Below, in pieces: positions 2,784 through 55,864 of a DNA stretch of 64,000 nucleotides; position 1 is the stretch's first letter; each line of letters begins with the position of its first letter. The notes below the pieces were generated by a model that saw only the letters and a list, made by a program, of their open reading frames with translations, made no database searches and was not told the origin of the DNA. This DNA comes from Eubacteriales bacterium. GTDB lineage: Bacteria; Bacillota; Clostridia; Oscillospirales; CAG-272. The stretch spans positions 26,220 through 90,219 of the forward strand of contig JAZQWM010000082.1 in assembly GCA_045632345.1 (NCBI GenBank). Reading direction: 5' to 3'. The position numbers were made by a program, and so were the translations under genes.

Positions 2784-2874
2784 ATAAACTATCTCCTTTA
2801 AATTAAAAATTAAATTGTCTGGGAAATAATCTATATCTAAATGAACCTCCTTTGCAGTCCATTACAAATGCATT

Positions 2875-2953
2875 GACCGACCGTTAGGGTGACCTAATGC
2901 TGTAAGCCTCAAGGGGCAATCCTCATAACAGCGTTCCAGAAGATTTGTCAGTC
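2875..2953 (-). promoter_or_regulatory. unclassified GC-rich structured 5' leader (candidate three-way junction) of the HNH gene
   Basis: Minus-strand pairings: GACUGAC/GUCGGUC (2947-2953 with 2875-2881), GCUGU/ACAGC (2928-2932 with 2899-2903), UUAGG-UCAC-CCUAA (2884-2897). GC content is clearly above the flanks. Confidence 0.3.
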
Positions 2954-2998
2954 GCCTTTAATTAAAAAAGGGGGTAGATTCGTTGTAACTGCATATTT

Positions 2999-6399: not shown

Positions 6400-8733
6400 T
6401 TATTTCTTAATCTTGTACGTTACGTGTACTGCGTTACCGCCTGTTAAGAGAATCATCTCAACTGCTGTCTTTGAGAAGTCGCCAGCCTTAACGATAAGTG
6501 GCTTATTAAGTGTTCCTCTTGCAAGAACCTTAACCGTCTTTGCTCTCTTATCAATAAGCTTCTTTTCCTTCATTGAAGCAAGGTTAACAATATCGTGAGC
6601 CTCGAATGCATCAGATAACGTATCAACGTTAACGATCGCTTTCTTTGTATCCTTAGCGCTAACGTACTCAACGCCTTCCTCTACGTGAACGTCGATATGT
6701 TGTTCCTCAGCGATTTGGTCTGCATCCTCTGCGCTGATTTCTTCAACGATAACCTCGTGCTCCTCGTAAACCTCTTCGATTACTTCTTCTTCGATTACTT
6801 CTTCGATAATTTCAACAGGAGCTTCCTCGATAACTTCCTCGGCCACCTCTGGGGCTACCTCTGGGGCTACCTCTTCGATAATTTCAACAGGAACTTCCTC
6901 AGCTACCTCTTCTACCACCTCAGGAACAGCCTCTTCAACTACTTCCTCGTTAGGTACTTCAGCAACTAATGCTTCTTCCTCAGTTACCTCTTCAACCGGC
7001 TTTGTTGATTTAACTATGATTGCATCATCAGGAATTAAGAGCTTAATTAAGCCACGCTCGATAAGTGGAGCATTTTCCTCATATGGATACATTGCAATAT
7101 AGTCAACTTCCTTAGCCTTTGGTTTTGTTTCAATTTCAAACTTAGCCATTACGATGTCAACAAGCTCCTTAGCCTTTCTAAGACCTAAGCCGCTCTTAAC
7201 CTTAACAAGCATTGGAACGTCTGCGAAGATTTTTGCATCGATTGCTTCGTGGTGATACTTGGACTTGTCAAATTCGTTAGGATCAAGGTTGCAGTAGAGA
7301 CAAATTGTCTTACCTCTTAGCTTCATCTTGAAGAGCTGATCTCTACCTCTGTTGTAGCTATCAAACTTCCAGCTAATTCTTGACTTAACGCCCTTGAATG
7401 ATAAAATGTAATTCTTTAATTCATTGTAATAACCCTTAACTGTGTCATCACTTTGAATGATGTTAGCAGTAATGCTACGGCTGAGCTTAATGTCAAGCTT
7501 GTTGCCGTCCTTATCAAAGTATGTAGGAACAACTACTGTGTTAGCTTCATCGGAAACCTCAACTACCTCCGGAGCTGGCTCCTCAGCCACTTCCTCGATA
7601 ATCTCAACAGGAGCTTCCTCGACAACCTCTTCAATAACCTCAACAGGTACTTCCTCAACTACTTCCTCAACTACTTCCTCAACCACCTCTGGGGCTACCT
7701 CTTCAGCTGCAGGGATTGGTTCTTCAACAACCTCAACAACCTCTTCAATAGCTTCCTCAGCAGTCTTTTCGGATTCTTCCTCAGCTACCTCTTCGATAAT
7801 TTCAACAGGAACTTCAGGGGCTACTTCCTCGGCTACCTCTTCGATAATTTCAACAGGTACTTCTTCAACAACCTCTGGGGCTACCTCTTCAACAACATCT
7901 TCAACTACCTTCTCAACAGGAGCCTCTGCTTCGAGAACGCCGCGTGAGAATAATTGAATTGTAAAGATAGATTCAGCGCCACTCTTATCAAGAATGATTT
8001 CGCCGTCCTTCTTAAAGCCCCAGCCTAAGAAGTTGTCATACTGCTCGTTTTCTTCAGGTAAAGAAAGCTTTAAGTAGTGTGATTCCTTATAGATATTTTT
8101 GTTAGCTACGCTGTCTGTAAAGAGAAGGTCAACGATAGCCTCGCTATTTGTTGGTACACCCGCTTGGCTAACTGGGCTTTCTTCAAATATTGGATAAAGA
8201 TTAATTACAAATGTTGCTTCAACGTCTTCCTTGGTGAGAATTGGCGCTTCATCAGGTGCAAAGCCCCAGCCATCAATTTCAACACCGTCGATTTGCTCAT
8301 CAGGAAGCTTTGTGTTAAGAACGAAGAATTCCTTCTTAACTGCTATATCCTCATCAGCGTCCATGTAATTAAACTCGATAGAAACTGCACTATTTGTTTC
8401 AACGTCCTCCCAAATTGTGTAAAGAGTTGTTGAACGAACTAAACAAAAAACAGAGTTTTCAATAGGCTTGGATTTACCAAGAACCTTTGACCAACCGATA
8501 AGCTTCTTGCCACTCTTTGCAGAGCCGTGGAGCTTAACCTTTTTGAAAAGCGGATGCTTTTCTGTGTGGATAACTACGTCGCCTTCTGTATCCACGTAAG
8601 TAATTGTTGGGCGAACTGTTAAAAGAACGATGCCCATTGTAAGAGCAATAACGGCAACAACGGCGAATAACCATGGGTTAACGTCGAAGATTGAAAGTGT
8701 TACTGCTTGGTTTAACAAACAAGTAAAATTCAT
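6400..8733 (-). CDS. membrane-anchored protein with InlB-B-like repeats, two acidic E/V/P low-complexity regions and a uL15-like C-terminal domain
   Basis: GGAGG RBS 7 nt before ATG 8733 (the track start 8787 is less likely). N-terminal TM helix. GW...TLYxIW-type repeats. C-terminus KVLARGTLNKPLIVKAGDFSKTAVEMILLTGGNAV resembles the ribosomal protein L15 C-terminus. Confidence 0.75.
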   Translation of the reverse strand: MNFTCLLNQAVTLSIFDVNPWLFAVVAVIALTMGIVLLTVRPTITYVDTEGDVVIHTEKHPLFKKVKLHGSAKSGKKLIGWSKVLGKSKPIENSVFCLVRSTTLYTIWEDVETNSAVSIEFNYMDADEDIAVKKEFFVLNTKLPDEQIDGVEIDGWGFAPDEAPILTKEDVEATFVINLYPIFEESPVSQAGVPTNSEAIVDLLFTDSVANKNIYKESHYLKLSLPEENEQYDNFLGWGFKKDGEIILDKSGAESIFTIQLFSRGVLEAEAPVEKVVEDVVEEVAPEVVEEVPVEIIEEVAEEVAPEVPVEIIEEVAEEESEKTAEEAIEEVVEVVEEPIPAAEEVAPEVVEEVVEEVVEEVPVEVIEEVVEEAPVEIIEEVAEEPAPEVVEVSDEANTVVVPTYFDKDGNKLDIKLSRSITANIIQSDDTVKGYYNELKNYILSFKGVKSRISWKFDSYNRGRDQLFKMKLRGKTICLYCNLDPNEFDKSKYHHEAIDAKIFADVPMLVKVKSGLGLRKAKELVDIVMAKFEIETKPKAKEVDYIAMYPYEENAPLIERGLIKLLIPDDAIIVKSTKPVEEVTEEEALVAEVPNEEVVEEAVPEVVEEVAEEVPVEIIEEVAPEVAPEVAEEVIEEAPVEIIEEVIEEEVIEEVYEEHEVIVEEISAEDADQIAEEQHIDVHVEEGVEYVSAKDTKKAIVNVDTLSDAFEAHDIVNLASMKEKKLIDKRAKTVKVLARGTLNKPLIVKAGDFSKTAVEMILLTGGNAVHVTYKIKK
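6700..7000. repeat. in-frame degenerate tandem repeats encoding (E-E-V-x) acidic tract 1
   Basis: Repeated gaagaagt/ctcttcgataatttcaacagg units. They generate spurious antisense ORFs. Confidence 0.8.
7550..7940. repeat. in-frame degenerate tandem repeats encoding acidic tract 2
   Basis: Same unit family as 6700-7000 (ctcttcgataatttcaacagg occurs in both tracts). Confidence 0.8.
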
Positions 8734-8920
8734 AAAAAACCTCCAAAAAATATTCGATACGTACTGTTCGTTGTTATAATTATACAATAATATTATTTAT
8801 TTGTCAACAAATAATTATTAAAATCAGTAAAGTTTTTTGTGAAATTTAGACACTCTGTCCACCGTTTTTTCATTTTGGAGCGTCTTGATTAACAAAAATA
8901 ACGTCAAACTAAATTTACTA

Positions 8921-10285: not shown

Positions 10286-10289
10286 TCAA

Positions 10290-10348
10290 GTTCGCTTCGC
10301 TCACAGGGGATAGGATATAGGAGATAGGGGCTCGCTTCGCTCACAGGG
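10290..10348. repeat. composite repeat: 18-mer / GWYAG heptad tract / 18-mer
   Basis: gttcgcttcgctcacagg (10290-10307), ggggataggatataggagatagggg (10306-10330, GATAG/TATAG/GATAG spaced 7 nt), ggctcgcttcgctcacaggg (10329-10348). Confidence 0.9.
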
Positions 10349-14138: not shown

Positions 14139-15266
14139 ATGATATACAATAATTTTAAAGGACTACAAATTTCAGCTCTTGGCTTTGGCACAATGCGACT
14201 TCCAACCATTGACGGAAAATACGACCAAATTGACCAAGAAAAGGTAAATGAAATGTTTGACTACGCTATTGAAAACGGCGTAAACTACTTTGATACTGCA
14301 TGGGGATACCATAACGGAATGAGCGAAATTGCCGTTGGCAAGGCGCTTAAAAGATATGACCGCAGTAAATTTTATCTTGCCACAAAGTTCCCCGGCTATG
14401 ACGTAAGCAATATGGGAAAGGTAGAAGAAATTTTTGAAAAGCAGCTTGAAAAATGCCAGGTGGAGTATTTTGATTTTTATTTAGTACATAACGTATGTGA
14501 AGCAAATATTGAATACTACCTTGATGAAAGCTACGGCACTGTTGACTACCTTTTAAAGCAAAAGGAAAATGGCAGAATTAAGCACCTTGGCTTCTCTACC
14601 CATGCAAATTTTGACAATTTCATGCGATATATGGATAAGTATGGCAAATATATGGAGTTTTGCCAAATTCAATTAAATTATCTTGACTACGAGTTCCAAG
14701 AAGCGAATAAAAAATTAGATTACTTAAAGGAGCAAAACATTCCCGTTATCGTAATGGAGCCTATCCGCGGTGGACGTCTTGCAAACCTTAGCGAAAATGA
14801 ACAAAGTGAGATTAACAAAATCCGTGAGGGCATAAAAGCACCTGAGTTTGCATTTAGATTTATTCAGTCCTTTGATGAGGTGCTTGTAACACTTTCAGGT
14901 ATGTCTAATTTTGAGCAAGCCAAGGAAAATATTGTAACCTTTAGCGAAAATAAAAAGCTAAATCAAGAGGAATTTAAAAAAGTCCTTGACCTTGGCAAGA
15001 AAATGACAACCTGTGTACCTTGCACATCCTGTCGCTACTGCACAGAGTATTGCCCACAAGGTCTTGATATTCCAAAGCTCCTTAACCTTTATAACGAGCA
15101 GGTGTTCTCAGGCGGTGGCTTTATTGTGTCCATGAACTTAAATTCAATGAGCGAAAACGAACGCCCAAGCGCGTGTATTTCCTGCGGCGCTTGTCAATCT
15201 GTCTGCCCACAGGGAATTAAAATCCCTGAGATTTTAGCAGACTTTGTTGAAAGAAGGAAGAAGTAA
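14139..15266 (+). CDS. aldo/keto reductase with C-terminal 4Fe-4S ferredoxin-type domain
   Basis: AKR N-terminal pattern (GFGTMRLP...DTAxGY) plus two CxxCxxCxxxCP clusters at the C-terminus. Confidence 0.9.
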   Translation: MIYNNFKGLQISALGFGTMRLPTIDGKYDQIDQEKVNEMFDYAIENGVNYFDTAWGYHNGMSEIAVGKALKRYDRSKFYLATKFPGYDVSNMGKVEEIFEKQLEKCQVEYFDFYLVHNVCEANIEYYLDESYGTVDYLLKQKENGRIKHLGFSTHANFDNFMRYMDKYGKYMEFCQIQLNYLDYEFQEANKKLDYLKEQNIPVIVMEPIRGGRLANLSENEQSEINKIREGIKAPEFAFRFIQSFDEVLVTLSGMSNFEQAKENIVTFSENKKLNQEEFKKVLDLGKKMTTCVPCTSCRYCTEYCPQGLDIPKLLNLYNEQVFSGGGFIVSMNLNSMSENERPSACISCGACQSVCPQGIKIPEILADFVERRKK

Positions 15267-15267
15267 A

Positions 15268-15317
15268 GGTTCGCTACGCGAACAGCAGTCAGCGGTTAGC
15301 CGTCAGCGGATAGCGAG
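15268..15317. repeat. 18-mer variant hairpin + GWYAG heptad tract directly after the AKR stop
   Basis: ggttcgctacgcgaac (perfect hairpin variant of the 18-mer), then GTCAG/GTTAG/GTCAG/GATAG at exact 7-nt spacing (15288-15313). Confidence 0.85.
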
Positions 15318-15426
15318 ATTTCAAAACGATTTGAAAAAATCAAGCGGTCAGCAAGCAGTGCCACGCCCCCGTCCCCTGTCACCGCTAAATTGATGAAAAG
15401 TTTTCAGTATAACATATTGTTTTAAT

Positions 15427-15456
15427 AAAAAATCACGGATTGCTCCGTGATTTTTT
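15427..15456. terminator. bidirectional rho-independent terminator
   Basis: A-run, atcacgga-ttgc-tccgtgat, T-run. Same core as 6365-6396. Confidence 0.85.
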
Positions 15457-15537
15457 GTTGGAATTATTGCCCACAAATTACGATTTGTCGCATTAAAATC
15501 AAAAAACTAATTTTGCTGACTGCAGGCGGTTAACACA

Positions 15538-15666
15538 TCTGCTTCGCAGAGCGATATGTCGTGCAATGCACGCGCGATATAACCGAATAACTTCGGTAGC
15601 GATATGCTTTCCCTAGGCGAAAGCTCGATATTCCGCCAAAGGCGGAGCGATATGCACCTTCGGTGC
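15538..15666. repeat. mini-hairpin array A2 (six hairpins, GCGATAT linkers)
   Basis: tctgcttcgcaga-GCGATAT-gtcgtgcaatgcacgc-GCGATAT-aaccgaataacttcggt-aGCGATAT-gctttccctaggcgaaagc-tCGATAT-tccgccaaaggcgga-GCGATAT-gcaccttcggtgc. Confidence 0.9.
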
Positions 15667-15700
15667 GTGCTGACGGCTAACAGCTAACAGCTAACGGCTA
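15667..15700. repeat. heptad tract (gctgacg gctaaca gctaaca gctaacg gcta) overlapping the GH78 stop codon
   Basis: CTRAC core every 7 nt on the plus strand, which reads GTTAG on the GH78 coding strand. Confidence 0.85.
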
Positions 15701-17830
15701 AAAAATATATTTTCCTGCTGAAACGTTGTGTGTTACGCCGTCAATTATAATCGTGCTTTCAACAGGTGTTTCGATTTCGTAGCGGATTTTGTTGTCAACG
15801 TGGTACCATTTTGAGGACACAACGCCTTGCTTTGTTTCAATTTTTGCGGACAGGTGGCTAAGCTTGTCCGTTGGCTTTGGTGCGATTAAGATTTTTTTAA
15901 AGCCGGGCGCAAGTGGCTTAATGCCACAGGCTTCCTCGTAAATCCAATCGGCAACGCTACCATAGGCGTAGTGGTTAAAGGAATTCATATCCTTTGACCA
16001 GAAATCGCCCTGCTCGTTTTTGCCGTCCCAATGCTCCCAAATTGTAGTTGCGCCTTGGTTAACAGAGTAGAGCCATGAAGGGAAATCCTCTTGTAAAAGT
16101 AGGTTATATGCAGTTTCTGTGTAGCCATTTTGAGATAACGCGTGGAGTAAAAACGGAGTGCCAACAAATCCTGTTTTTAGCTTGTTGCCGTTTTTCACAA
16201 TCATGGTATTTAGCTGCTTTGCTACCTTTTCCTTGTCGGTTGCTATATCAAAATAAAGTGCCAATGCACACTCTGTTTGAGTTTTGTATTTTTTAAAGGT
16301 TTTTCTAATTCTACTAAGTATTCTTTCTTGTAGGTGGCGGTATTTTTTACTGCTTCTGCCTAAAATTTCGCACACATCCCCCACTATTTTAACAGAATTG
16401 TAGTAAAATACAGAGCCGATAAAGTCATCATTTGATGAGCCTTTATAATCTCCTGCAGGAGCGTCAAGTCCTAGCCAGTCGCCAAATTGCCAGCATCCGT
16501 ACCATAAATATCTTCTTGTGGTGTGAGTGCGAATGTAGTCAAGGTATCTAACCATTGTTTTAAGTTGATTTTTAAGGAAATCAACGTTACCATAGGTCAT
16601 ATACATTGTGTATGGAATAATAGTTGAGCTATCTCCCCATACTGCTCCGCTTTCCTCACTTGTTGACCAGTCCCAGCATACGGTTTGAGGGATAATGTTT
16701 GGAATGTTGCCCTGTTTACCTTGGTCAAGGCGCATATCCGTTAGCCATTTAGTAAAGAATTTTTCTACGTCAAAATTATATGATGCAGTTCTGCAAAAGA
16801 CGGTGGCATCTCCTGTCCAGCCCTGTCTTTCATCTCTTTGAGGACAATCGGTAGGCACGTCAAGGAAGTTGCCCTTCTGTCCCCAAATTATATTTGAAAA
16901 TAGTTGGTTAAGCTTTGGATTTGAGCTTTCAATATAGCCTGTTCTCTTTATATCGGAGTGAACAACGATAGCCTTGATATTTTCCTTTGTAATTTCAGTC
17001 GGGAAGCTATCAACGCGCATATATCTAAATCCCCAAAACGCTAGCTTTGGTTTATAGGTATTTACGCCCTCATGACAAATATACTCAAATCTTGCCTTGG
17101 CATCACGGTAATTTTCGTTATAGAAGTTGCCGTATTTATCAAGGACCTCACAAACGGTAAATTCTACCTTATCGCCTTTTTGGGCGTTTACGGTAAACTC
17201 AAAATATCCTGTTAAATTTTGACCGAAATCCACGATTGTATCGCCGTTTGGAGCTTTAAATATAGACACAGGTCTAATATTTTCCTGCTCTACGATTTTT
17301 TCGCCCTGTTGCTTTACGATAATTTCTTTAGTGTGGTCAAGTATAGATACAGGCACTAAGGTGTTTTCAAAATTGCTATCGTAAATTTCCCCATCGTAAA
17401 GCTCTGCAAAGCGTAATTTGTCCTTGCGCCCTTGCCAGCTATTATCTGTTACAATCGTTTCCTTAGCTCCGTCCTTATATAAAATTTCAATTTGGCAAAT
17501 TAAAGCTTTTGGCACATCGTTTGCTACAACGAAGTTGATTTTGCCGTTATACCAGCCATCTCCCACTAAAATTTCAAGGGAGTTTTCCTTTTGGAGCATG
17601 CTTATAATATCATACTCCTGATACTGCACTCTTTTTCTTGAGGTAAAGCCGGGGGCTAAAATAAAATTCCCAACTCTTACTCCATTTAACTCAGGATAGT
17701 AACAGCCTAAGGAAGTAACAAACAGCGTTGCTTTTTTTACTTCCTTATTTATATTAAATTTCTTAACGAAGCATGATGGCTCATATAAAATATTATTTGG
17801 ATGTGTTATCCATTTTGCATTTTCAAACAT
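15698..17830 (-). CDS. alpha-L-rhamnosidase (GH78 family)
   Basis: GH78 signature region DVPTDCPQRDERQGWTGDA. Start overlaps the upstream stop (TAATG). Confidence 0.9.
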   Translation of the reverse strand: MFENAKWITHPNNILYEPSCFVKKFNINKEVKKATLFVTSLGCYYPELNGVRVGNFILAPGFTSRKRVQYQEYDIISMLQKENSLEILVGDGWYNGKINFVVANDVPKALICQIEILYKDGAKETIVTDNSWQGRKDKLRFAELYDGEIYDSNFENTLVPVSILDHTKEIIVKQQGEKIVEQENIRPVSIFKAPNGDTIVDFGQNLTGYFEFTVNAQKGDKVEFTVCEVLDKYGNFYNENYRDAKARFEYICHEGVNTYKPKLAFWGFRYMRVDSFPTEITKENIKAIVVHSDIKRTGYIESSNPKLNQLFSNIIWGQKGNFLDVPTDCPQRDERQGWTGDATVFCRTASYNFDVEKFFTKWLTDMRLDQGKQGNIPNIIPQTVCWDWSTSEESGAVWGDSSTIIPYTMYMTYGNVDFLKNQLKTMVRYLDYIRTHTTRRYLWYGCWQFGDWLGLDAPAGDYKGSSNDDFIGSVFYYNSVKIVGDVCEILGRSSKKYRHLQERILSRIRKTFKKYKTQTECALALYFDIATDKEKVAKQLNTMIVKNGNKLKTGFVGTPFLLHALSQNGYTETAYNLLLQEDFPSWLYSVNQGATTIWEHWDGKNEQGDFWSKDMNSFNHYAYGSVADWIYEEACGIKPLAPGFKKILIAPKPTDKLSHLSAKIETKQGVVSSKWYHVDNKIRYEIETPVESTIIIDGVTHNVSAGKYIF

Positions 17831-18900: not shown

Positions 18901-18959
18901 CTACCCGCTAACGGCTGGCGTTGCCCTGCTGACCACTGACCACTGACCACTGACCACTC
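18901..18959. repeat. heptad tract, nine units in register, ending in perfect (ACTGACC)x4
   Basis: ctacc..ctaac..ctggc..tgccc..ctgac x4, core positions 18901, 08, 15, 22, 29, 36, 43, 50, 57. Confidence 0.95.
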
Positions 18960-27807: not shown

Positions 27808-29115
27808 TTACACTAATTTACGCTTGTCAATAACGCGAACTGCCTTGCCTTCGCTTCTTGCGATTGTCTTTGGAGCAACTAAATGTACCTTTGGATTTAT
27901 GCCAAGCATTGCTTTCATAGCTTCGCTAAGTGATTTTTCCATAGAAATAATCTCGCCAACCTTATCGGTAAATTGCTCTGGTGCAAGCTCTACGTTAACC
28001 TCAAAGGTATCTGTATTGTTTACACGGTCAACTACGATTTGGTAGTTTGGCTGATAGCCCTCGTTTAAGAGAACTGTTTCAATTTGGCTTGGGAATACGT
28101 TTACGCCACGGATAATAAGCATATCATCAGTTCTGCCCATAGGCTTAGCCATTTTAACTAACGTACGACCACAGGAGCATTTTTCTCTTGAAAGAACACA
28201 AATATCGCGTGTGCGGTAACGAAGAAGCGGGAACGCTTCCTTATCAAGTGATGTGAAAACAAGCTCTCCCTTTTCTCCCTCAGGTAAAACCTCTCCTGTA
28301 TCAGGGTTGATAATTTCCGCATAGAAGTGGTCCTCATTTATGTGCATGCCTGTTTGCTCACAGCATTCAAATGCTACGCCAGGGCCAGACGTTTCTGTAA
28401 GACCGTAAATATCGTACGCCTTAATACCAAGTGTTGCTTCGATATTCTTTCTCATTTCCTCAGTCCAAGGCTCAGCACCGAAAATGCCCGCCTTTAAAGG
28501 AATATCCTCAGGCTTATAACCCTGCTCCTTTAAGGATTCGCCAATATATGCAGCGTATGATGGTGTGCAGCAAATAATTGATGCGTTTAAGTCCATCATA
28601 AATTGAATTTGTCTATCTGTGCTGCCTGATGACATAGGAAGTGTAAGACAGCCTACCTTATGAGAGCCACCGTTAAGACCTGCGCCACCTGTAAATAGAC
28701 CGTAGCCGTAAGCTACTTGGCACACATCCTTTTTGCTTCCGCCTGCTGCCACAATAGCTCTTGCACAGCAATCCTCCCATAAATCAATATCGTTTTGAGT
28801 GTAGAACGCCACAACTCTACGGCCTGTTGTACCTGATGTTGAGTGAATTCTTACACATTCATCAAGAGGCTTTGCTAAAAGACCGTATGGGTATGCATCT
28901 CTTAAATCAGCCTTTGAAAGGAAAGGAAGCTTATATAAATCATCAATTCCCTTAATATCCTCAGGCTTAACGCCTTTTTCGTCCATTAAATTACGGTAAT
29001 ACTCTACGTTTTCGTAAACGTGCTTTACCTGCTTAACAAGCTTTTCTGATTGGAGCTTTTTCATGTCCTCTCTGGACATGGTTTCAATTTCTCTTTGGTA
29101 ATAGTTTTTTTCCAT
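27808..29115 (-). CDS. phenylacetate--CoA ligase family protein (PaaK / F390 synthetase-like adenylating enzyme)
   Basis: Length and motifs (SSGTTGRxV, YGLTE, C-terminal GKAxRVIDxR) match the PaaK family. Confidence 0.88.
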   Translation of the reverse strand: MEKNYYQREIETMSREDMKKLQSEKLVKQVKHVYENVEYYRNLMDEKGVKPEDIKGIDDLYKLPFLSKADLRDAYPYGLLAKPLDECVRIHSTSGTTGRRVVAFYTQNDIDLWEDCCARAIVAAGGSKKDVCQVAYGYGLFTGGAGLNGGSHKVGCLTLPMSSGSTDRQIQFMMDLNASIICCTPSYAAYIGESLKEQGYKPEDIPLKAGIFGAEPWTEEMRKNIEATLGIKAYDIYGLTETSGPGVAFECCEQTGMHINEDHFYAEIINPDTGEVLPEGEKGELVFTSLDKEAFPLLRYRTRDICVLSREKCSCGRTLVKMAKPMGRTDDMLIIRGVNVFPSQIETVLLNEGYQPNYQIVVDRVNNTDTFEVNVELAPEQFTDKVGEIISMEKSLSEAMKAMLGINPKVHLVAPKTIARSEGKAVRVIDKRKLV

Positions 29116-29164: not shown

Positions 29165-29479
29165 TTCTTTTCTCATGTAGAAAACAAAACGCCCTCTGCA
29201 TTCCGAAAAGAATACAGAGGACGAGAAACTATCCCGTGGTACCACCTCAGTTCGCCACCGTCTCACAACGGCAGCCTTTTCAGGTACTAACATACCTTAG
29301 TTCTATGACGGGAACACCCGTTGCATCCTACTAGGGAAACCCCATTCAGCGCACAGCTAACAGAATGAATTCGTGAAGGATAACTCCCTTGCCTCGCACC
29401 AAACGGCAATTCTCTGAACGGGTTATTCCAGCCTACTACTTTCTGCTCATCGCATTTACATGAATAATTTTTCATTCAT
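29165..29479 (-). promoter_or_regulatory. T-box riboswitch leader, specifier UUC (Phe), with intrinsic terminator
   Basis: On the minus strand: stem I GCGAUGAGCAGAAAGUAGUA, AGAGA box, distal GGUGCGA loop, specifier loop ACGAA-UUC-A (29369-29367), T-box core GAGGUGGUACCACGGG (29247-29232), terminator cctctgtattc-ttttcg-gaatgcagagg + U-run (about 29220-29178). Confidence 0.85.
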
Positions 29480-37676: not shown

Positions 37677-38543
37677 TTAACGGCTTTTATATTCCTTTAA
37701 AATTTCGCCTGCTACGTAATCGTTTACTCTGCCCTGGTAGTGGATTAAGTCCCAACGGAAAATGTTACAGTCCCACGCGTATTCGTCATAAAGCGGGCAA
37801 GTCCTTACATCGTAAACTGACGCGTTTTTCATTTCCTTAGCAAGAATATCAAAGGTGTCATTGATATAATGCATGCTCTCAAGACGGCTTCCGCCGTCCT
37901 CTTTATCACGGTTAGCAAATACCTTATTAAATGGGAAGCGGTGGAATACTACGGGCGCATCACAACCGATAGCAGAGCGAATACCACCGAAGATTTCAAG
38001 ATACGTATCCTTTAAAAACGTCTCTAATTTAGACACAGGGTAGTCTGTTTCCTGCTCTCCTCCACGCCAATGTATGCCTACATAGTCAGGCTCTAGCTCA
38101 TTTGCTTCCATGTACTTTTTAAAGAGTGTTAGCACGTGAATAGCAAGAGGATACATGGAAATATCACAATCTCCAAGCTTACCTCTTATCATTTTTGGCG
38201 CACGCTTAGGGTCCCACATACCTGTAACCCCCTGTGAGCCAATAGCTATATGAATAATATAAAGGTCAGGTAATTCTACGCCGCTATCAATATCATTTTG
38301 CCAATGCTTAGCAAGGCAGTTTGCTATGGAATATGTGTTATCCTGTGTCTCTGCAAGATTCATACCGTAGCTTGTATAACCTGTAAACTTTAATTTTTCT
38401 GTATCGTATGATTGGTTAGGCTCTCTATTTAAGCCCCATACATTTTTAAGAGGCACTTTAATAATATCCTCTTCACTCATAGGCATAGCGTGGCCAACTG
38501 CATTTGATTGACCGAATAACATAAAAATAGCAATTTTTTTCAT
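37677..38543 (-). CDS. sialate O-acetylesterase-like (DUF303/SGNH-type) carbohydrate esterase
   Basis: N-terminal GQSNAVGH motif. The true start is probably ATG 38543 (MKKIAIFMLFGQSN), preceded by the shared leader TGACTGAAAGGAACGAA. The track's 26 extra codons translate repeat DNA. Confidence 0.7.
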   Translation of the reverse strand: MKKIAIFMLFGQSNAVGHAMPMSEEDIIKVPLKNVWGLNREPNQSYDTEKLKFTGYTSYGMNLAETQDNTYSIANCLAKHWQNDIDSGVELPDLYIIHIAIGSQGVTGMWDPKRAPKMIRGKLGDCDISMYPLAIHVLTLFKKYMEANELEPDYVGIHWRGGEQETDYPVSKLETFLKDTYLEIFGGIRSAIGCDAPVVFHRFPFNKVFANRDKEDGGSRLESMHYINDTFDILAKEMKNASVYDVRTCPLYDEYAWDCNIFRWDLIHYQGRVNDYVAGEILKEYKSR

Positions 38544-38574
38544 TTCGTTCCTTTCAGTCACTTCATTCAAGGAG

Positions 38575-39112
38575 TCAGGGGACAGGGGTTCGCTTCGCTC
38601 ACAGGGATAGTTAGTAAACAATTTTTTATAACTAATCCACAGCTATCTCGCATTTTTCCAAATCACCTGAATAAATCCTACCTTTAAAGTGCATTTAATC
38701 ATTTAGACTTAATTTTTTCACTATTGCATTTATTAGTTTAGCTACTTCTTTACAACCTTGCATAACAGTATCTACTGTTTCTTCTTTTTCAAAATAGCCA
38801 AGCATTTTACAAATTTCTAACTGTGTTTCAAGTTCTGCTCTTGACGCATTTGCGATAAATAAAAACTGTATGTATTCCTTTGTGCTTCTTCGCTCGTATC
38901 CTTCTGCAATGTTGGAAGGAATAGAAATAACGCTTCTTCTCATTTGATCTGCTAAAGCAAACCTCTCATTGTTTGGTAATTGATTTATAAGCCCATATGT
39001 ATCTTTTACCAAATCCATTGCTTTTTGCCAAACCACTAAATCTCTATAATCTCTCATAAACTAATCCCCCTGTGAGCAAGGCGAACCCCTGTCTCCTGTC
39101 CCTTGTCCCCTG
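38575..39112 (-). mobile_element. inverted-repeat-bounded cassette carrying a four-helix-bundle gene (IVS-like / MITE-like element)
   Basis: Left arm is tcaggggacaggggttcgcttcgctcacaggg (38575-38606). The reverse complement of the right arm (39066-39112) is caggggacaagggacaggagacaggggttcgccttgctcacaggggg. The core of about 25 nt matches with 2 mismatches. Confidence 0.65.
38695..39057 (-). CDS. four-helix-bundle protein (23S rRNA intervening-sequence protein family, Avd-like)
   Basis: MRDYRDLVVWQKAMDLV...ISIPSNIAEGYERRSTKEYIQFL...ELETQLEI matches the family signature closely. Its RBS (AGGGGG) lies inside the cassette arm. Confidence 0.9.
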   Translation of the reverse strand: MRDYRDLVVWQKAMDLVKDTYGLINQLPNNERFALADQMRRSVISIPSNIAEGYERRSTKEYIQFLFIANASRAELETQLEICKMLGYFEKEETVDTVMQGCKEVAKLINAIVKKLSLND

Positions 39113-39277
39113 TTATACTATTTCATAAGAAAACATTTCGTACTTCAAATGTGTGCCAATATCAACGCCCTCAGGCAATAATGCCATTGCGATAAATATT
39201 TCGTTTTCTGTGTTTTCCTCAAGTATGTAGGCGTATTCGCCCTCAATTTTTGTAACTACATAGTATTTTGTTTCCAT
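39113..39277 (-). CDS. small protein, DUF3006-like (54 aa; not in the ORF track)
   Basis: AGGGAG RBS. METKYYVVTKIEGEYAYILEE...LLPEGVDIGTHL resembles the DUF3006 pattern. Confidence 0.55.
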   Translation of the reverse strand: METKYYVVTKIEGEYAYILEENTENEIFIAMALLPEGVDIGTHLKYEMFSYEIV

Positions 39278-41091: not shown

Positions 41092-44000
41092 ATGAGAAAC
41101 AAATTAAGAAAAGCGGTTGCGCTATTTTTGGCGGTGCTAATGCTTTTACCTTTAGTGCTTACTTGTGTTAGTGCAAGTAGTGGCGTTTACGATCCAACGT
41201 CAGAGGAAACGAAAAAGCTTGGCGCTACCTTTGATAGCAAAACTACGGCAAAAATGGAAAAGATTTTGCCATCTCTTCCTTACACCTATGAGGCGGAAAT
41301 TCAAATTAACAATTCTGCCCGTGGCGGTGTAATTTTAGGCAACTATTCCGGTAAGGGCTACTCTATTAGCTTTGAAATCGATACTAACGGTAACCCTCGT
41401 ATTTATGCGGCGTATGGAAACGATAACACAAGCACTACTTTTAAAAACGTTAGCGTTTTATCAACTGAGCTTGTTAGATTAACTATTACCGTTGATAAAG
41501 AAAAAAATATGGCACATTGCTACATTAACGGTGATTTAAAGCAATCATTACCATTCAGCTTTGAAAAAATTGGAAACACCATTCCAACCGGCAAGTGTTT
41601 AATGGTAGGCGGTGACCACCGTAATAACAATACCGTGCCTTTCCTTGGTCAAATTAAGAGTGTTTACGCATATAGTGATATGCGTACCGCTGATGAAGTA
41701 GCTAAAGGTACAGATTTAAACGATGATAACCTTTTAGTGGCTTATGAATTTATGCAATCAGGCGGTAAAAACCTTTCAAAATATGAAGGCTATGACCTTG
41801 TTACAACTGATTGGAAGCTTGATATTGCAGGCGAAAACGCGTTAACGTTTTCCGCCAACAATACTTATCAAGTAATTAAACCATTTGAAGAGCCGGGCTT
41901 AACCTATGAAGCGTTAGTTTACTTCCCACAAAGCTCCGACAACTCAAGAGGTGGCGTTGTGCTTGGTAACTACGAAACCGGTACAAACAAATGTATCAAC
42001 TTTGAGTTTAAAGAAAACGGCAACCCAAGACTTTATTTTGAGCTTGGCGGATACAGTAACGCAAGAGACTTCCACTTTAAAGAAATTGACGTAAGACAAA
42101 GCAGATTTGTTTTCGTTACAATTACAGTTGACCCAGCAAAGGGCGAGGGCAAATGCTATATTGACGGTGAGCTTGCACAAACCATAACGTTAAACCCATT
42201 TACAATCTCAGAAGTAGCTTATGAAAAAGCAATGTACCTTGGTAGAGATATAAGAACTACCGACGGTTACCCATTTAAGGGTGCTATTAAAAATCTTGCG
42301 GTATATAGCAACATTCGTACAGCTTCCGAAATTAAAGCGGATATGAACGAATTTAACGAAAATGACAACAACGTTATTGCAATGTACGAGTTTAACACCG
42401 ACACCGGTAGAAGAGATATAAGCGGTAACGGTTATCATATTTGTTATAACGGTGAAACAAAGCCTAATGATGACTTCAATCCTGACGTGCCTGAAAATCC
42501 TGACACACCGGATGAACCCGATACACCGGTTGATCCCGACACTCCAGATGAGCCTGACACACCAGATGAGCCAGACACACCTATCGAATTTGACGGCTTA
42601 ACCTTTACCTCAAATGATTTTGCTATTGTTGGTAAGACGTTCCCATTAGACAGCGAAGGACTTACCTTCGAGGCGGTTATTCAGCTTTCAAAGGACGTTA
42701 CAAATCGTGGCGGTATTATTTTAGGTAACTATAAGGATACTAATCACTTTGTAAACTTTGAAATTGTCAAAAACGGTGTTCCAAGACTTTGTATAACAAG
42801 CTATGGTAGCGTTGGCACAAGACACGATTTTCAATTCACAGGCGTTGACGTAAGAGGGGATAAGCCTGTGCATTTAGCCATCACTCTTGATAAAACAACA
42901 GGCCATGCGATTTGCTATATTAACGGTGAATTTGCAGGAAAGATAGAATCAAAAAAAGAAATTGCTCTTAACCCAGGCGTTAACGATTACTATATGATTA
43001 TCGGTAACGACCTACGAACAAACGACTTCCAAAACTTCAAGGGCGTTATCGGCTCTGTGGCAGTTTATACCGACGTAAGAAATGAAAACGAAATCAGATT
43101 AGACGCAAAAGGAATTAATCTTGAAAGCGATAACCTTGAAATGTACTTTAATTTAGCAGGCTTAGAAACTGGCGATAATATCGCCGACTTAAGCGGCAAC
43201 GGTTACGATGCTAAATATGGCACAAGAGTACAAGCGGAAAAATCTAACTGGATTTACAAGGATGAGGTTAAGGATTACCTTTACTCCTTTGCAGTTGTGG
43301 GCGATACTCAAATTATCGCAAACAGATACGGCAGCAGCTTTGGTAAGATTTACGATTGGATTTTAAATAACCAAGTATCTAAAAAGATTGCATACGTATT
43401 CGGTCTTGGCGACATTACCGACGGAAATAGCGCAAACGAATGGGCGCTTGCTAAAGAGCATATTTTAAATAAGCTTACAGGCATTATCCCTTACTCAGTT
43501 GTAAGAGGTAACCACGACGGCAAGACTCAAATTAATAACGTTTTCGCAACAGAAGAATATATGAGCCAATTTGACGGCTTCTACGCTGAAAACGATATTA
43601 CAAACTCATATAGATTCTTTGAAATTGCAGACACTAAGTATCTCTTTATCACACTTGACTACGGCGCAAATGATGATATTCTTAACTGGGCAGGGGAAAT
43701 TATTAAAGCAAACCCAGACAGAAAGGTAATTATCACAACCCACGCATACCTATATAGAGACGGTACAACTCTTGACCAAAAAGATGTTTGCCCACCTGCA
43801 ACAACAGGCGGCTCAAACAACGGCGACCATATGTGGGATAAGCTTATCTCAAAATATGAAAATATCTACCTTGTTATGTCAGGACACGACCCATATGCAA
43901 ACGTTGTTGTAACACAAACAGAAGGCGTAAACGGTAACATTGTAACTCAGATTTTAACTGACCATCAAGGCGTTGATACATCAACACCAACAGGTATGGT

Positions 44001-44816: not shown

Positions 44817-44850
44817 TAGCTCTGCAAGTAATTTGCAGAGCTACTTTTTT
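44817..44850 (+). terminator. rho-independent terminator
   Basis: tagctctgcaa-gtaat-ttgcagagcta followed by CTTTTTT. Confidence 0.9.
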
Positions 44851-44870: not shown

Positions 44871-44899
44871 TTGAAATATAGAATTTTATGTGCTATAAT
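44871..44899 (+). promoter_or_regulatory. putative promoter of pheST (extended -10)
   Basis: TTGAAA-17 nt-TATAAT with TG at -15/-14. Only about 40 nt remain before the pheS RBS, so there is no room for a T-box. Confidence 0.7.
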
Positions 44900-44939: not shown

Positions 44940-45977
44940 ATGAAGGAAAAATTAGAAGCGTTGCTTCGCGAAGGCTCTGAAAAAATTCAAGCAGCTAAGA
45001 CAGAAGCAGAATTACAGCAAATAAAAGGCGCATACCTTGGTAAACAAGGCTCTGTTACTGAGCTTATGAAGGAAATGCCTAAAATTGACCCTGCACTCCG
45101 TCCTGAAATGGGCAAGGCTGTAAACAATGTTAAAAATCTTTTAAGTGAGCAAATCGAAGGAAAGCGCGAGGAAATCAAGCTTAAGGCTGACGCTATTCCT
45201 GAGGATTTTGACTATACTCTTCCAGGCATTAAGCCAATGATTGGCGGTTTACATCCAATTACACAAATGTGCTACGACTTAAACGATGCATTCCGTTCAA
45301 TGGGCTTTGAGGTTTTCCACGGTCCTGAAATCACAAGCGAATATTACGCTTTTGATAACCTTAACTTCCCACCAAACCACCCTGCAAGAGAAAGCATGGA
45401 TACGTACTGGCTTGAAGGACACGATTCAGGCAAAGCAAGCGAAAAGCTTTGCTTAAGACCACACTTAACAGGCGGAAGCGTACGCTATATGCAAACACAT
45501 AAGCCACCATACCGCTTTGTATATCCAGGTAGAGTATATAGAAACGAAACTACTGACGCAAGACACGAAAGAGCGTTCTTCCAATACGAAGCGCTTATCG
45601 TTGATAAGGACTTTACATATACAGCAGGAAAGGTAATGATTAAGAGCATTCTTTCCAAGGTATTCGGACAAGACGTTCCTGTAAGAATGAGAGCGGGCTT
45701 CTTCCCATTCGTTGAGCCAGGCTTTGAAATTGATATGGGCTGTCTCGTTTGTGGCGGTAAGGGTTGTAGCGTATGTAAGCACGTTGGTTGGATTGAAATC
45801 ATGCCGGGCGGCACACCACATCCAAACGTACTTCGTTCAGCAGGTCTTGACCCTGATGAATACACAGGCTTCTACGTAAACATCGGTCTTGACCGTCTTG
45901 TTATGATGCGTTACGGCGTTGACGACGTTCGTTTATTCCATAGCACAGACCTTCGTTTCTTGAACCAGTTCAAGTAA
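44940..45977 (+). CDS. pheS: phenylalanine--tRNA ligase alpha subunit
   Basis: Class II aaRS motifs and overall PheS pattern (HPARESMDT..., FPFVEPGFEID...GWIEIMPGG). Confidence 0.97.
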   Translation: MKEKLEALLREGSEKIQAAKTEAELQQIKGAYLGKQGSVTELMKEMPKIDPALRPEMGKAVNNVKNLLSEQIEGKREEIKLKADAIPEDFDYTLPGIKPMIGGLHPITQMCYDLNDAFRSMGFEVFHGPEITSEYYAFDNLNFPPNHPARESMDTYWLEGHDSGKASEKLCLRPHLTGGSVRYMQTHKPPYRFVYPGRVYRNETTDARHERAFFQYEALIVDKDFTYTAGKVMIKSILSKVFGQDVPVRMRAGFFPFVEPGFEIDMGCLVCGGKGCSVCKHVGWIEIMPGGTPHPNVLRSAGLDPDEYTGFYVNIGLDRLVMMRYGVDDVRLFHSTDLRFLNQFK

Positions 45978-45985
45978 ACGTAAAA

Positions 45986-46170
45986 GGGGATAGGGTATAG
46001 GGGCTCATTGCATTCGCAGGGGTTCGCTATGCTCACAGGAGAAATTAGTTCGAACGAAAATAACGAAGAAAAGAAATAAGCACTTTCAAGTGGCGTGGAT
46101 AATATAAAATGTCAAAGGATAATGCGATAGAGTAATTACCCTATCCCCTATCCCCTGACCCCTGTCCCCT
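45986..46170 (+). mobile_element. gene-less inverted-repeat element in the pheS-pheT spacer (same family as 38575-39112)
   Basis: Left arm ggggatagggtatagggg (45986-46003) plus 18-mer ggttcgctatgctcacagg (46021-46039). Right arm ccctatcccctatcccctgacccctgtcccct (46139-46170). The arms pair at 16 of 17 positions. Confidence 0.65.
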
Positions 46171-46174
46171 TGAG

Positions 46175-46193
46175 TGACTGAAAGGAACGAAAT
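46175..46193 (+). promoter_or_regulatory. shared RBS leader TGACTGAAAGGAACGAA(AT) immediately 5' of the pheT ATG
   Basis: The 17-nt string is identical to the reverse complement of 38544-38560, upstream of the esterase ATG. A related ACTGAAAGGAGTGAAC lies at 33167-33182. Confidence 0.8.
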
Positions 46194-48642: not shown

Positions 48643-48670
48643 AAAAATCCGCTTGAAAAAGCGGATTTTT
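48643..48670 (+). terminator. rho-independent terminator of pheST
   Basis: aaaaaatccgc-ttgaaaaa-gcggattttt. Confidence 0.9.
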
Positions 48671-48683
48671 GTTATTTAAATTA

Positions 48684-48723
48684 GGCTCGCTTCGCTCACA
48701 GCCGTCAGCCGTCAGCGGTTAGC
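48684..48723. repeat. 18-mer + GWYAG heptad tract
   Basis: ggctcgcttcgctcacag, then ccgtcag ccgtcag cggttag c. Confidence 0.9.
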
Positions 48724-48765
48724 AAGTTTTGCTCAATGCATATTTTGACCATATAATTCATTGTG

Positions 48766-48795
48766 TAGCTACTAACCACTAGCCACTTACCACTA
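48766..48795. repeat. heptad tract (tagctac taaccac tagccac ttaccac ta)
   Basis: 7-nt periodicity. It reads as the GWYAG type on the minus strand, downstream of the minus-strand gene. Confidence 0.8.
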
Positions 48796-48823
48796 AAAAA
48801 GCAACCGAAATCGGTTGCTTTTG
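48795..48823 (-). terminator. rho-independent terminator (minus strand)
   Basis: AAAAAA-gcaaccga-aa-tcggttgc-TTTTG (bidirectional form). Confidence 0.85.
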
Positions 48824-54338: not shown

Positions 54339-54410
54339 CTAACAATCACTAATCTATCCCGCTGACCGCTATCGGCTAACCGCTGACAGCTGTGAGCGAC
54401 CGAAGGGAGC
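54339..54410. repeat. CTRWC heptad tract + 18-mer variant forming the 5' UTR and RBS of the GT2 gene
   Basis: ctaac..ctatc..ctgac..ctatc..ctaac..ctgac..ctgtg (69-73, 76-80, 83-87 and 90-94 in exact 7-nt register), then ctgtgagcgaccgaagggagc supplying AGGGAG 8 nt before the ATG. Confidence 0.85.
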
Positions 54411-54417
54411 TAACCTA

Positions 54418-55647
54418 ATGAAACTTTCAGTTATTATCTGTGTATATAACACAGAAAAGCAGTATTTCGAGGAATGCTTAAAATCAATTAGAAAATCAAC
54501 TCTTAAGGATTACGAAATACTTGTTATTGACGACGGCTCAACTACTGACTATTCGGACGTTATTGAGAAATATGAGCCAAGATACGTAAAAACAGAAAAC
54601 AGAGGTCTTTTTGCCGCAAGACTTTTTGCTTTAACTATTGCTAAGGGCGATTACGTAACGTTTGTTGACAGCGACGATTCCGTTACCTTCAACTACCATC
54701 AGCCTATGGTTAATGCGGCTATCAATCTTGATGCTGACGTTGTTATAAACGACTGGGCATTCCACACGGAAAGAACAAGATATTTCTGTGTAAACGACCC
54801 GCTTATCCGTGAAGATATTACCTTAAACGGCGATGAGTGCTTAAAGGAGTTTGCCGCACAGGAGGGACGCGCTCACTCATACTTTGTTCATTGGAATAAG
54901 GTTACAAAAAGAAGCGTACTCTTAAAGGCGAAGGCAGAGCTTGAGTCCACCCACATTATTATGCATAAGCATACGTATTCTGAGGACGCTATTATAAACT
55001 TCTTTGTGTTCAGAAACGCTAAAAAGGTTACAAATATCCACACAGGTTACTATTTTTACAGAATTCATGAGGATCAAAGCGTAAACGCTTCAAACAGGGA
55101 CAAGCTTATTTCTCAAATTGATGATATGGCAAGATCCTTTAATATTATGCTTGTAAATATCAGTAAGAATATGTACGCAAAGGAAATCAAGTACAGTATT
55201 CTTAAGTGGCGTGAGCTAATGTCAAGAACACATTACTCCTACGCTAAGGCTGGCAAGCATTCTGACCTTTACGATTACATTAAAGAAGCATACGAGGTTG
55301 ACACGCTTTCTAAGTCAACTACTAAGGACGGCGAGCTTTATGCAAAAACTCAGCTTTTAGGCGATAATTTCCTTGAAATTGATAAATGCCTACGCAACAT
55401 CTACTTTACAAAAGCAAACGTTACCGTAATGTACGATAAGAGCGACCTTTACGTTGTCCGCACAATGCGATACATTGAAAGAATGAAGCGAGGCGAAACG
55501 GAAACAGAGCAAAAAACCCTCTTTGTTCCAACCAAGGTAGTAAGCGCAAAAAATCGCTTCTTACATAACCATCTTGTGTACAACATAGGGCTACGCCTTT
55601 TCAAAAAGGGCTCAAAAATCCGCGCGTTTTTAAAGAGTAAATTCTAA
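54418..55647 (+). CDS. GT2 family glycosyltransferase (soluble) with C-terminal domain of unknown function
   Basis: KLSVIICVYNTEKQYFEECLKSI...YEILVIDDGSTD and DSDD motifs. Confidence 0.85.
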   Translation: MKLSVIICVYNTEKQYFEECLKSIRKSTLKDYEILVIDDGSTTDYSDVIEKYEPRYVKTENRGLFAARLFALTIAKGDYVTFVDSDDSVTFNYHQPMVNAAINLDADVVINDWAFHTERTRYFCVNDPLIREDITLNGDECLKEFAAQEGRAHSYFVHWNKVTKRSVLLKAKAELESTHIIMHKHTYSEDAIINFFVFRNAKKVTNIHTGYYFYRIHEDQSVNASNRDKLISQIDDMARSFNIMLVNISKNMYAKEIKYSILKWRELMSRTHYSYAKAGKHSDLYDYIKEAYEVDTLSKSTTKDGELYAKTQLLGDNFLEIDKCLRNIYFTKANVTVMYDKSDLYVVRTMRYIERMKRGETETEQKTLFVPTKVVSAKNRFLHNHLVYNIGLRLFKKGSKIRAFLKSKF

Positions 55648-55654
55648 TAAAAAA

Positions 55655-55685
55655 GACACATCCTAAAGGGGTGTGTCATTTTTTT
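55655..55685 (+). terminator. rho-independent terminator
   Basis: gacacatcc...gggtgtgtc followed by ATTTTTTT. Confidence 0.8.
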
Positions 55686-55864
55686 AGCCGCCAGCCGTTA
55701 GCAGTCAGCCCGCACCGAAGGTGCATATCGCTACGAAGCAGTGCTTCGTTTTATCGCTGAATTACGGAGTAATTTTATATTGCTCGCCGTAGGCGTATCT
55801 CGCTCTGCAAAGCAACGCTTTGCAATTTACCTGTTGCGAAGCAACAATTTACCGCTGGCGGCTA
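55685..55864. repeat. mini-hairpin array A5 (inverted orientation) enclosed by an 11-bp inverted repeat
   Basis: TAGCCGCCAGC (55685-55695) ... gcaccgaaggtgc-ATATCGC-acgaagcagtgcttcgt-tTTATCGC-...-gccgtaggc-...-tgcaaagcaacgctttgca-ATTTACC-tgttgcgaagcaaca-ATTTACCgc ... GCTGGCGGCTA (55854-55864). Confidence 0.85.

Follow-up and report, generated by a model that had tools for sequence, protein, structure and literature searches.

A gene-less, 23S rRNA IVS-type cassette in the pheS–pheT spacer of a Clostridia genome and its probable contribution of the pheT ribosome-binding site

In the 64-kb stretch of DNA analysed here (64,000 nucleotides; hereafter, the window), pheS and pheT are separated by a 216-nt spacer, which sequence comparison identifies as an internally deleted, gene-less copy of a cassette that is bounded by heptamer arrays and that, when intact, contains a four-helix-bundle (4HB; '23S rRNA IVS protein') gene. 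The Shine-Dalgarno sequence of pheT lies within sequence that, on good support, appears to be derived from this element. We regard the element as a variant of the known rRNA intervening-sequence (IVS) kind, apparently residing in an mRNA spacer, devoid of its gene and supplying a ribosome-binding site (RBS) to the following gene. An earlier note on this DNA had interpreted the spacer in much the same way, and its interpretation was largely supported by our analysis. Of the two possibilities it had raised, namely that the gene pair tolerates the insertion or exploits it, we favour the former.

Layout of the pheS–pheT spacer

The spacer extends from 45978 to 46193, between the stop codon of pheS (45975-45977) and the ATG of pheT (46194), and its components are listed in Table 1. 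A G-rich array (GGGGATAGGGTATAGGGG, 45986-46003), which is homologous to the arrays of loci L086 and L087, starts 8 nt past the pheS stop codon, and a C-rich array ends 23 nt before the pheT ATG, in agreement with the description in the earlier note of the two tracts and of the leader that follows the second. The note had also described an 18-mer variant behind the G-rich tract. This sequence is present, but it is 19 nt long (GGTTCGCTATGCTCACAGG, 46021-46039); the 19-mer family has five matches in the window (at most 3 mismatches) versus none in 100 shuffled sequences.

The description of the payload as AT-rich and free of genes holds as well: the plus strand of the spacer contains no ORF of at least 40 aa, and the only ATG-initiated ORF comprises 16 codons (46029-46079) and starts at an ATG that is peculiar to this copy of the 19-mer. 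A tblastn search of the spacer with 4HB proteins yielded no match, and an Rfam search detected nothing in it at gathering thresholds or at E <= 1, so the spacer has no match to a known cis-regulatory RNA (T-box, leader or riboswitch). No terminator-like site was found in the spacer, and a candidate promoter at 46096-46123 was rejected, because it matches at only 9 of 12 positions, which is within the expectation from shuffled sequences. Upstream of pheS are a promoter-like site (44871-44899) and a terminator (44817-44843), and another terminator lies past pheT (48643-48670). The 5' untranslated region of pheS is only about 35 nt long and contains no T-box; a T-box leader (97.2 bits) is present elsewhere in the window, at 29214-29459 on the minus strand, upstream of a 435-aa ORF (27808-29115). 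The window stems from an uncultured Clostridia member of the ruminant gut; the best matches of PheS are found in Oscillospiraceae or 'Eubacteriales' MAGs, and an exact-protein look-up returned no identical record for either the PheS or the 4HB protein of the window.

Table 1. Features of the pheS–pheT region and of related sequences (window positions unless a contig is named)
Feature	Position	Strand	Basis
pheS, upstream partner, 345 aa	44940-45977	+	TIGR00468, 1.1e-71 (NCBIfam equivalog)
Left flank ACGTAAAA, probably a remnant of the native spacer	45978-45985	+	Junction TAA ACGAAA also in sister lineage L206-L211
5' arm, G-rich heptamer array GGGGATA GGGTATA GGGG	45986-46003	+	TRF, period 7; inverted-repeat arm I1
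Sub-repeat CTCATTGCATTCGCAGG and 19-mer GGTTCGCTATGCTCACAGG, conserved inner 5' module	46004-46039	+	Within the segment 91% identical to L086
AGAAATTAGTT, leader relic of the lost 4HB gene	46040-46050	+	Alignment with L086, L082 and cassette A
AT-rich interior, 3' relic of the 4HB gene (final ~12 codons and stop) and of its 3'UTR	46051-46138	+	Global alignments with four intact cassettes
3' arm, C-rich heptamer array CCCTATC CCCTATC CCCTGAC CCCTGTC CCCT	46139-46170	+	TRF, period 7, 4.6 copies; arms I1-I4
Right-end leader TGAGTGACTGAAAGGAACGAAAT with Shine-Dalgarno AAGGA (46182-46186)	46171-46193	+	Identity to the right end of cassette A
pheT, downstream partner, 814 aa	46194-48638	+	TIGR00472, 6.3e-193 (NCBIfam equivalog)
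Cassette A, intact sibling, 7 kb off	38542-39115	-	TIGR02436, 3.4e-38; sequence
Solo family fragment after the glyA stop: 19-mer, GGGGATAGGATATAGGAGATAGGGG, 19-mer	10289-10347	+	
Hypervariable post-pheT site	48685-48796; L206 6705-6950; L207 4464-4586; L209 3717-4050		

Insertion relative to related species

In all 78 related species in which both pheS and pheT could be located, the two genes are separated by 12-38 nt that include a GGAG-type site, versus 216 nt in the window; the spacer of the two closest species reads GGAGGAATTTTAAA. An equally long, homologous spacer, the finding that would have spoken against the earlier note, is present in none of these 78 species, and neither the 19-mer nor the 15-mer leader sequence had a match in 80 related pheS loci. 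The proposal that an element had been inserted between pheS and pheT is thus upheld, and the comparison shows the spacer, as judged from its length and content, to be an insertion relative to the 78 species.

The intact cassette and the decay of the spacer copy

Intact cassettes consist of a G-rich heptamer array, the 19-mer, the 4HB gene, a C-rich heptamer array and a leader with a Shine-Dalgarno sequence, in this order. One of them, cassette A, is located in the same window and contains a GGGGACA-type G-array, the 19-mer, the 4HB gene (38695-39057), an inverted 19-mer, a C-array and the leader AGTGACTGAAAGGAACGAAATG. This leader continues into a gene for an esterase-like protein of 288 aa (37677-38543). 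The 4HB protein of cassette A (120 aa) matches TIGR02436 (3.4e-38), PF05635 (23S_rRNA_IVP) and PF22296 (bAvd), and the arms of the cassette pair at -70.9 kcal/mol (z = -8.8). The 4HB homologues found in related metagenomes show the same architecture.

Both ends of the spacer could be aligned with such cassettes. Positions 45985-46050 are 91% identical to the 5' end of the L086 cassette, up to 1 nt short of the 4HB start codon; in the intact cassettes (L086, L082 and cassette A), GGGAGGTTAGTTT is followed by the ATG, which lies 1 nt beyond the position equivalent to 46050. In global alignments with four intact cassettes, positions 46051-46193 correspond to the 3' part of the cassette, from the final ~12 codons of the 4HB gene through its stop codon (the relic TAA at 46077-46079) and 3'UTR to the C-array and leader, with identities of 63-75%. 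The spacer copy lacks about 108 codons of that gene. Because its ends are homologous to both cassette ends, the spacer equals a cassette minus these codons, and the alignments show it to be a copy of a 4HB cassette, bounded by heptamer arrays, whose gene has been lost through an internal deletion. Its assignment in the earlier note to the cassette family seen elsewhere in the window, as a member without a gene, is therefore confirmed. The copy is a mosaic, L086-like at its 5' end and cassette A-like at its 3' end.

Origin of the pheT ribosome-binding site

Each of the 21 nt in front of the pheT ATG is matched at the right end of cassette A, and the 15-mer GTGACTGAAAGGAAC within this stretch also terminates the cassettes of L082, L083 and L087. 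The leader tracks the cassette type rather than the downstream gene: the same leader precedes esterase genes that are only 54% identical (window versus L083), and L086 has a different leader although its esterase is 94% identical to that of the window. The GGAG site of the relatives is absent from the window spacer. The identity of the leader to cassette A, together with its absence from the 80 pheS loci, indicates that AAGGA (46182-46186), which is located 7 nt from the pheT ATG, came with the element. Thus, it is well supported that the pheT Shine-Dalgarno lies in sequence derived from the element, as the earlier note had suggested in stating that the element supplies the RBS of pheT; a site like GAAGGAGA, which appears to be the native one, is missing in the window. 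A metagenome scan with a 20-mer from the right end detected a single contig, L081, in which arrays are absent, and this match is probably due to chance. The contig is small and unrelated, and its positions 503-525, just past a tRNA gene, match all 23 nt of TGAGTGACTGAAAGGAACGAAAT exactly.

We consider it fairly probable that the element is a tolerated selfish passenger, whose insertion inside the operon is nearly harmless. pheS, the element and pheT would be transcribed as a single RNA, in which the G-rich and C-rich arms would pair and loop out ~136 nt. By analogy with rRNA IVSs, the resulting stem would be a probable substrate of RNase III, and pheT would be translated from the AAGGA of the element whether or not the RNA is cut. 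The sense orientation, the lack of a terminator, the foldable interior and the RBS at the 3' end would together make such an insertion nearly harmless.

A second element at the same junction

In a sister lineage represented by six independent contigs (L206-L211), PheS is 98.3% identical in protein and 91.7% identical in nucleotide sequence to that of the window, and the synteny is the same. The pheS–pheT spacer of this lineage is 221 nt long, is identical in all six contigs and contains a different gene-less heptamer element. On its 5' side, TAA ACGAAA is followed by GTTCGCTTTGCGAAC (AGCAGTC AGCAGTT AGCAGTT AGCGGCT) and an AT-rich interior; on its 3' side, CGCTGAC CGCTAAC AGCTAGC GGCTAGC is followed by ACGAAGGAGAATTT and the ATG. 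The arms of the sister element pair at -64.0 kcal/mol (z = -3.7), and its 5' module matches that of a further element of the window (15269-15316). The left junction is common to the two lineages, and the native-looking site GAAGGAGA, which the window lacks, is kept downstream of the sister element. The interiors of the two elements are marginally similar (z = 2.0, a score reached by 29 of 500 shuffles). As regards a possible target-site duplication, the element in the window has ACGTAAAA to its left and ACGAAAT to its right, the latter being part of the cassette leader, and the sister element has ACGAA on both sides. Two insertions may have struck this junction independently, or one element may have taken the place of the other; a single ancestral insertion with later replacement of its arms would also fit.

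The presence of two elements at one junction could mean that the site benefits from them and that insertion is perhaps not purely selfish. The stem would then serve the host as a processing or coupling device that sets the PheS:PheT ratio or the stability of the mRNA halves, through cleavage by RNase III or through a folded stem that places the pheS stop codon and the pheT RBS ~30 nt apart. The near-equal sizes of the two gene-less heptamer elements (216 and 221 nt) in sister lineages and the identity of the 221-nt spacer in six independent assemblies are in line with such a role, and so is the path from stop codon to ATG with the stem formed (7 + 22 nt), which falls inside the native range of 12-38 nt. 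However, spacers of 12-38 nt suffice in the 78 related species, the interiors of the elements are at best marginally similar, and elements built alike are found in rRNA and at many loci unrelated to this one. We consider exploitation by the host unlikely, and tolerance of a selfish passenger remains the reading that we prefer.

Past the pheT terminator, the sequence varies strongly even between contigs with identical PheS proteins, and heptamer arrays bound this region, too (Table 1). At this site, the same 19-mer and CCGTCAG-type arrays surround a different cargo in each contig.

4HB cassettes at other loci

We collected 29 independent 4HB loci from several phyla, including Clostridia metagenome contigs, viral contigs and plasmids (Nostoc, Stanieria, Geminocystis, Picosynechococcus, Gemmatirosa, Azospirillum and Riemerella), and scored arrays with a self-match of at least 12/14 located within 100 nt of the 4HB gene. 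Period-7 arrays flank the gene in 18 of the 29 loci, versus none with periods 4-6 and 9-10, three with period 8 and two with period 11, and no period-7 array is located inside a 4HB ORF in these 29 loci. The heptamer differs by lineage (GGGGATA, GGGTGTA, TTCAGTG, GGATCTA, AGGGAAC, AAAAGGG or CAACGTT), but the 5' and 3' arrays of a cassette remain complementary to each other: GGGGATA/TATCCCC, GGGTGTA/TACACCC, TTCAGTG/CACTGAA and GGATCTA/TAGATCC, with AGGGAAC/GTTCCCT, AAAAGGG/CCCTTTT and GGTTYAA/TTGAACC as further pairs. When each flank was compared with 31 partners, its own counterpart was the best in 15 of 31 cases, versus approximately one expected by chance. As read from these arrays, their complementarity amounts to covariation at the level of the whole arm, and it lends weight to the long-range stem proposed in the earlier note, irrespective of whether the pairing operates in RNA or in DNA. 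Two further candidates were rejected. That heptamer arrays would ensure a stop codon in each of the three frames is true for GGGGATA but fails for several other families, and a scan of viral contigs with the core of the 19-mer gave 64 matches, none of which adjoins heptamer arrays; L155 contains an unrelated 27-nt tandem repeat.

At the nine metagenomic insertion sites examined, the genes on either side of the 4HB gene point in its direction, and the site usually lies within an operon, for example, tyrA|4HB|aroF, yitT|4HB|ansA, helicase|4HB|DUF4391-methylase, GDPD|4HB|MFS and trmD|4HB. Co-orientation is also seen in several plasmid loci, such as cas10|4HB|cmr3 (L203). In this Picosynechococcus plasmid, the gene lies between cas10/cmr2 and cmr3. 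Genes for 23S_rRNA_IVP have been noted inside cas operons (PMC3936711) and reported as 'CRISPR-associated' (PMC3936711, PMC10910872); this association may be due simply to the insertion of cassettes into cas operons or to the misreading of heptamer arrays as CRISPR arrays. One of the 29 loci, L204 (Azospirillum), is a genuine 23S rRNA gene (LSU model, 1107 bits). Its helix-45 region contains a 4HB ORF that has AGGACGG/ATGACAG heptamers on one side and heptamers complementary to them, ATCCGTC/CTCTGTC, on the other. At a yitT-like/asparaginase junction (the P0027 cassette, L089-L097), the 5' module, comprising the heptamer array and ~50 nt, is present in one, two, three or at least six tandem copies. 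The number of copies differs between samples, so that one arm of this cassette varies in copy number at the population level.

No transposase, recombinase or reverse transcriptase was linked to the cassettes, and the 4HB gene is the sole gene of intact ones; hence, the label 'mobile' refers only to their distribution. The lack of a mobility gene would also suit a one-off recombination scar, that is, ectopic recombination or gene conversion from a nearby cassette that involved no element-specific mobility and left no function behind. In relatives, a cassette–esterase locus lies directly upstream of pheS, and the order 4HB cassette, esterase, pheS, pheT in L087 indicates that a cassette donor was once adjacent to pheS–pheT; the mosaic nature of the copy points in the same direction. 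However, a scar does not account for a different heptamer element at the identical junction of the sister lineage, nor for a family found at many unlinked loci in several phyla. Heptamer arrays are also numerous in the window itself, with 7 in 64 kb versus 8 in 832 kb of relatives' sequence, or approximately 10 times as many per kb as in the pheS loci of relatives. We regard this explanation as improbable.

Pairing of the arms

The earlier note had the outer tracts pairing at 16 of 17 positions around a loop of about 135 nt. Pairing of this kind was found, with slightly different figures: the best inverted repeat joins 45985-46002 to 46139-46156 with 17 of 18 positions complementary and 136 nt in between. 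The minimum free energy fold of the spacer closes with these outer G:C arms, at a z of about -2.8 to -2.9 versus shuffled sequences, a value that is modest because both arms are of low complexity. The stem of the decayed copy is short (18-20 bp) and has alternative registers.

In a wobble-pair test, the sense strand was not favoured: of the 29 loci, 15 had the more stable duplex on the antisense side (p = 0.54), and a lean to the antisense strand in a first small sample was gone in this larger set. In view of this absence of bias, the complementarity of the arms could be maintained at the DNA level. That the element acts solely as a DNA structure, with a G-quadruplex, i-motif or cruciform affecting transcription, replication or recombination and RNA pairing being irrelevant, is the most doubtful of the alternatives: the minus strand of 46139-46170 has a G4 sequence motif of five G3-4 tracts with 3-nt loops, and GGGAATC / GGGGAYT repeats placed by the same rule form G4 in vitro (PMC4692102), but the heptamers of many families (TTCAGTG, CAACGTT, GGTTTAA and AGCAGTC) are incapable of forming G4, and it is complementarity, not G-richness, that is conserved.

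Other repeats in the window

A further heptamer-array-bounded element is located between convergent genes at 15265-15705. In this element, GTTCGCTACGCGAAC and AGCAGTC AGCGGTT AGCCGTC AGCGGAT (15269-15316) pair with GGCTAAC AGCTAAC AGCTAAC (15669-15701) and enclose ~360 nt (fold z = -8.3), and its cargo includes several small hairpins in a row, along with one that resembles a terminator. Strings of 5-6 short GC hairpins, in which GCGATAT follows every hairpin (CATATCRC when read from the opposite strand), occur at 15520-15675 on the plus strand and, in the opposite orientation, at 55700-55850, as well as after pheT in L207 and L209; the hairpin order is kept between loci, and heptamer arrays form the bounds. 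Their sole Rfam match is a sub-threshold one to Gut-1 (23.9 bits). More intergenic heptamer arrays are present at 18929-18958, 54359-54392 and 55683-55710, the array types being a perfect CTGACCA repeated 4.3 times, a CCGCTGA type just upstream of an ORF at 54418 and TTAGCCG/CCAGCCG.

The window also contains a full-length match to the Rfam Staphylococcus-1 RNA (2861-2986, minus strand; 107.9 bits, gathering threshold 87.7) in what is a gut Clostridia genome, in-frame tandem repeats with periods of 12, 36, 48 and 72 nt inside a 795-aa ORF (6400-8787, minus strand) and an 18-nt repeat present 4.4 times (42502-42581) inside a 1191-aa ORF upstream of pheS.

Relation to known systems

The closest known kind of element is the 23S rRNA IVS with an S23p / 23S_rRNA_IVP ORF (PF05635, TIGR02436), as in helix 45 of Coxiella burnetii and in Leptospira. 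The Coxiella IVS, which contains GACAGAT heptamers and is closed by a terminal stem of 28 bp, is cleaved by RNase III in vitro with the mapped IVS termini in mid-stem, and has suffered ORF deletions in some strains, including a 176-bp deletion in strain AuQ01 (PMC4990558). The spacer element resembles this kind in its terminal inverted repeats that could form a stem (17 of 18 pairs) and in the tandem heptamers of its arms, which are found in the 5' arm of Coxiella (PMC4990558), in L204 and, in the spacer, at 45985-46003 and 46139-46170. Intact cassettes share the 4HB ORF in the loop, whose decay is known from rRNA IVSs, and L204 has the same array–ORF–array layout; by analogy, transcription in the sense orientation together with the host gene would be common to both kinds. 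In contrast to rRNA IVSs, the spacer copy is located in an mRNA between protein genes rather than in rRNA helix 9, 25 or 45, and no rRNA match was found in the window at Rfam gathering thresholds. It also lacks the loop ORF except for the 3' relic, whereas its sibling retains a PF05635/TIGR02436 ORF (38695-39057), and it carries a Shine-Dalgarno sequence for the downstream gene.

Heptamers of a similar appearance, GGGAATC / GGGGA(C/T)T, were described in Xanthomonas and Nostoc by Rehm et al. (2015), who found them to form G4 in vitro and to be located, G-rich, past stop codons and, C-rich, ahead of start codons of co-oriented ORFs (PMC4692102). Xanthomonas genomes contain 70-75 convergent inverted pairs each, typically with approximately four units and a variable number of units; the heptamers were not tied to 4HB genes, IVSs or an insertion origin, and their function was left open (PMC4692102). 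The spacer likewise has non-coding tandem 7-nt units with G3-4 tracts, and its arrays form a convergent pair within 50 bp of the flanking stop and start codons, the G-array 8 nt past the pheS stop and the C-array 23 nt before pheT. The emphasis of that work is on G4, whereas in our set the non-G families behave alike. Cyanobacterial STRR heptamers were reportedly described by Mazel et al. in 1990.

Correia/NEMIS-type MITEs of Neisseria, which are short, gene-less and bounded by inverted repeats, represent a functional analogue. They are co-transcribed in operons, their hairpins are cut by RNase III, and they provide expression signals for the downstream gene; they have TA target duplications, lack heptamer arrays and bear no sequence relationship to the spacer element. 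The spacer element resembles MITEs in having terminal inverted repeats and an apparent origin by internal deletion from a longer element. It differs from them in that its parent cassette has no transposase and contains only the gene for the 4HB protein. We know of no parent element for the Correia elements, whereas the 4HB cassette is available as that of the spacer copy.

The protein of intact cassettes is also a homologue of Avd, the accessory protein of diversity-generating retroelements (NF033474, 6.9e-08; PF22296 bAvd). However, the cassettes have no reverse transcriptase, template repeat or variable repeat nearby, and the pheS–pheT copy contains no gene. A connection of 4HB genes with inverted heptamer arrays or operon cassettes was not found in the full-text literature, the coverage of which is incomplete, so that a prior description is possible.

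Implications

Heptamer-array-bounded cassettes, with or without a 4HB gene, may possibly form one phylum-spanning class of mobile 'operon intervening sequences', a proposal that we make tentatively. As a further tentative part of it, such elements would integrate in the sense orientation just past stop codons or into rRNA helices, provide an RBS for the next gene and be exchanged at fixed slots. The last property is suggested because the pheS|pheT junction holds two family members and the post-pheT site holds different cargo at identical PheS. If true, this would bring together three poorly explained things, namely 23S rRNA IVSs, the heptamer repeats of cyanobacteria (STRR) and Xanthomonas, and the genes annotated as 'four helix bundle protein', which are abundant. 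It would also imply a specific mechanism of integration or exchange, possibly one in which an Avd-like 4HB protein cooperates with a recombinase or reverse transcriptase provided in trans. In the searchable literature, no mutual link was found between rRNA IVSs, heptamer (STRR / G4) repeats and the common 4HB genes without a function.

Phenylalanyl-tRNA synthetase requires both of its subunits. Two different elements at the pheS–pheT junction indicate that even an essential junction tolerates insertion, and it would accept a foreign element of ~200 nt provided that the element is built for insertion. With the arms and the putative RNase III sites and slot exchange, the role of IVS-type elements and of their protein can be addressed on defined material. 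The spacer copy appears to illustrate how IVS-type elements may sit in operons without breaking them, namely by carrying an RBS of their own.
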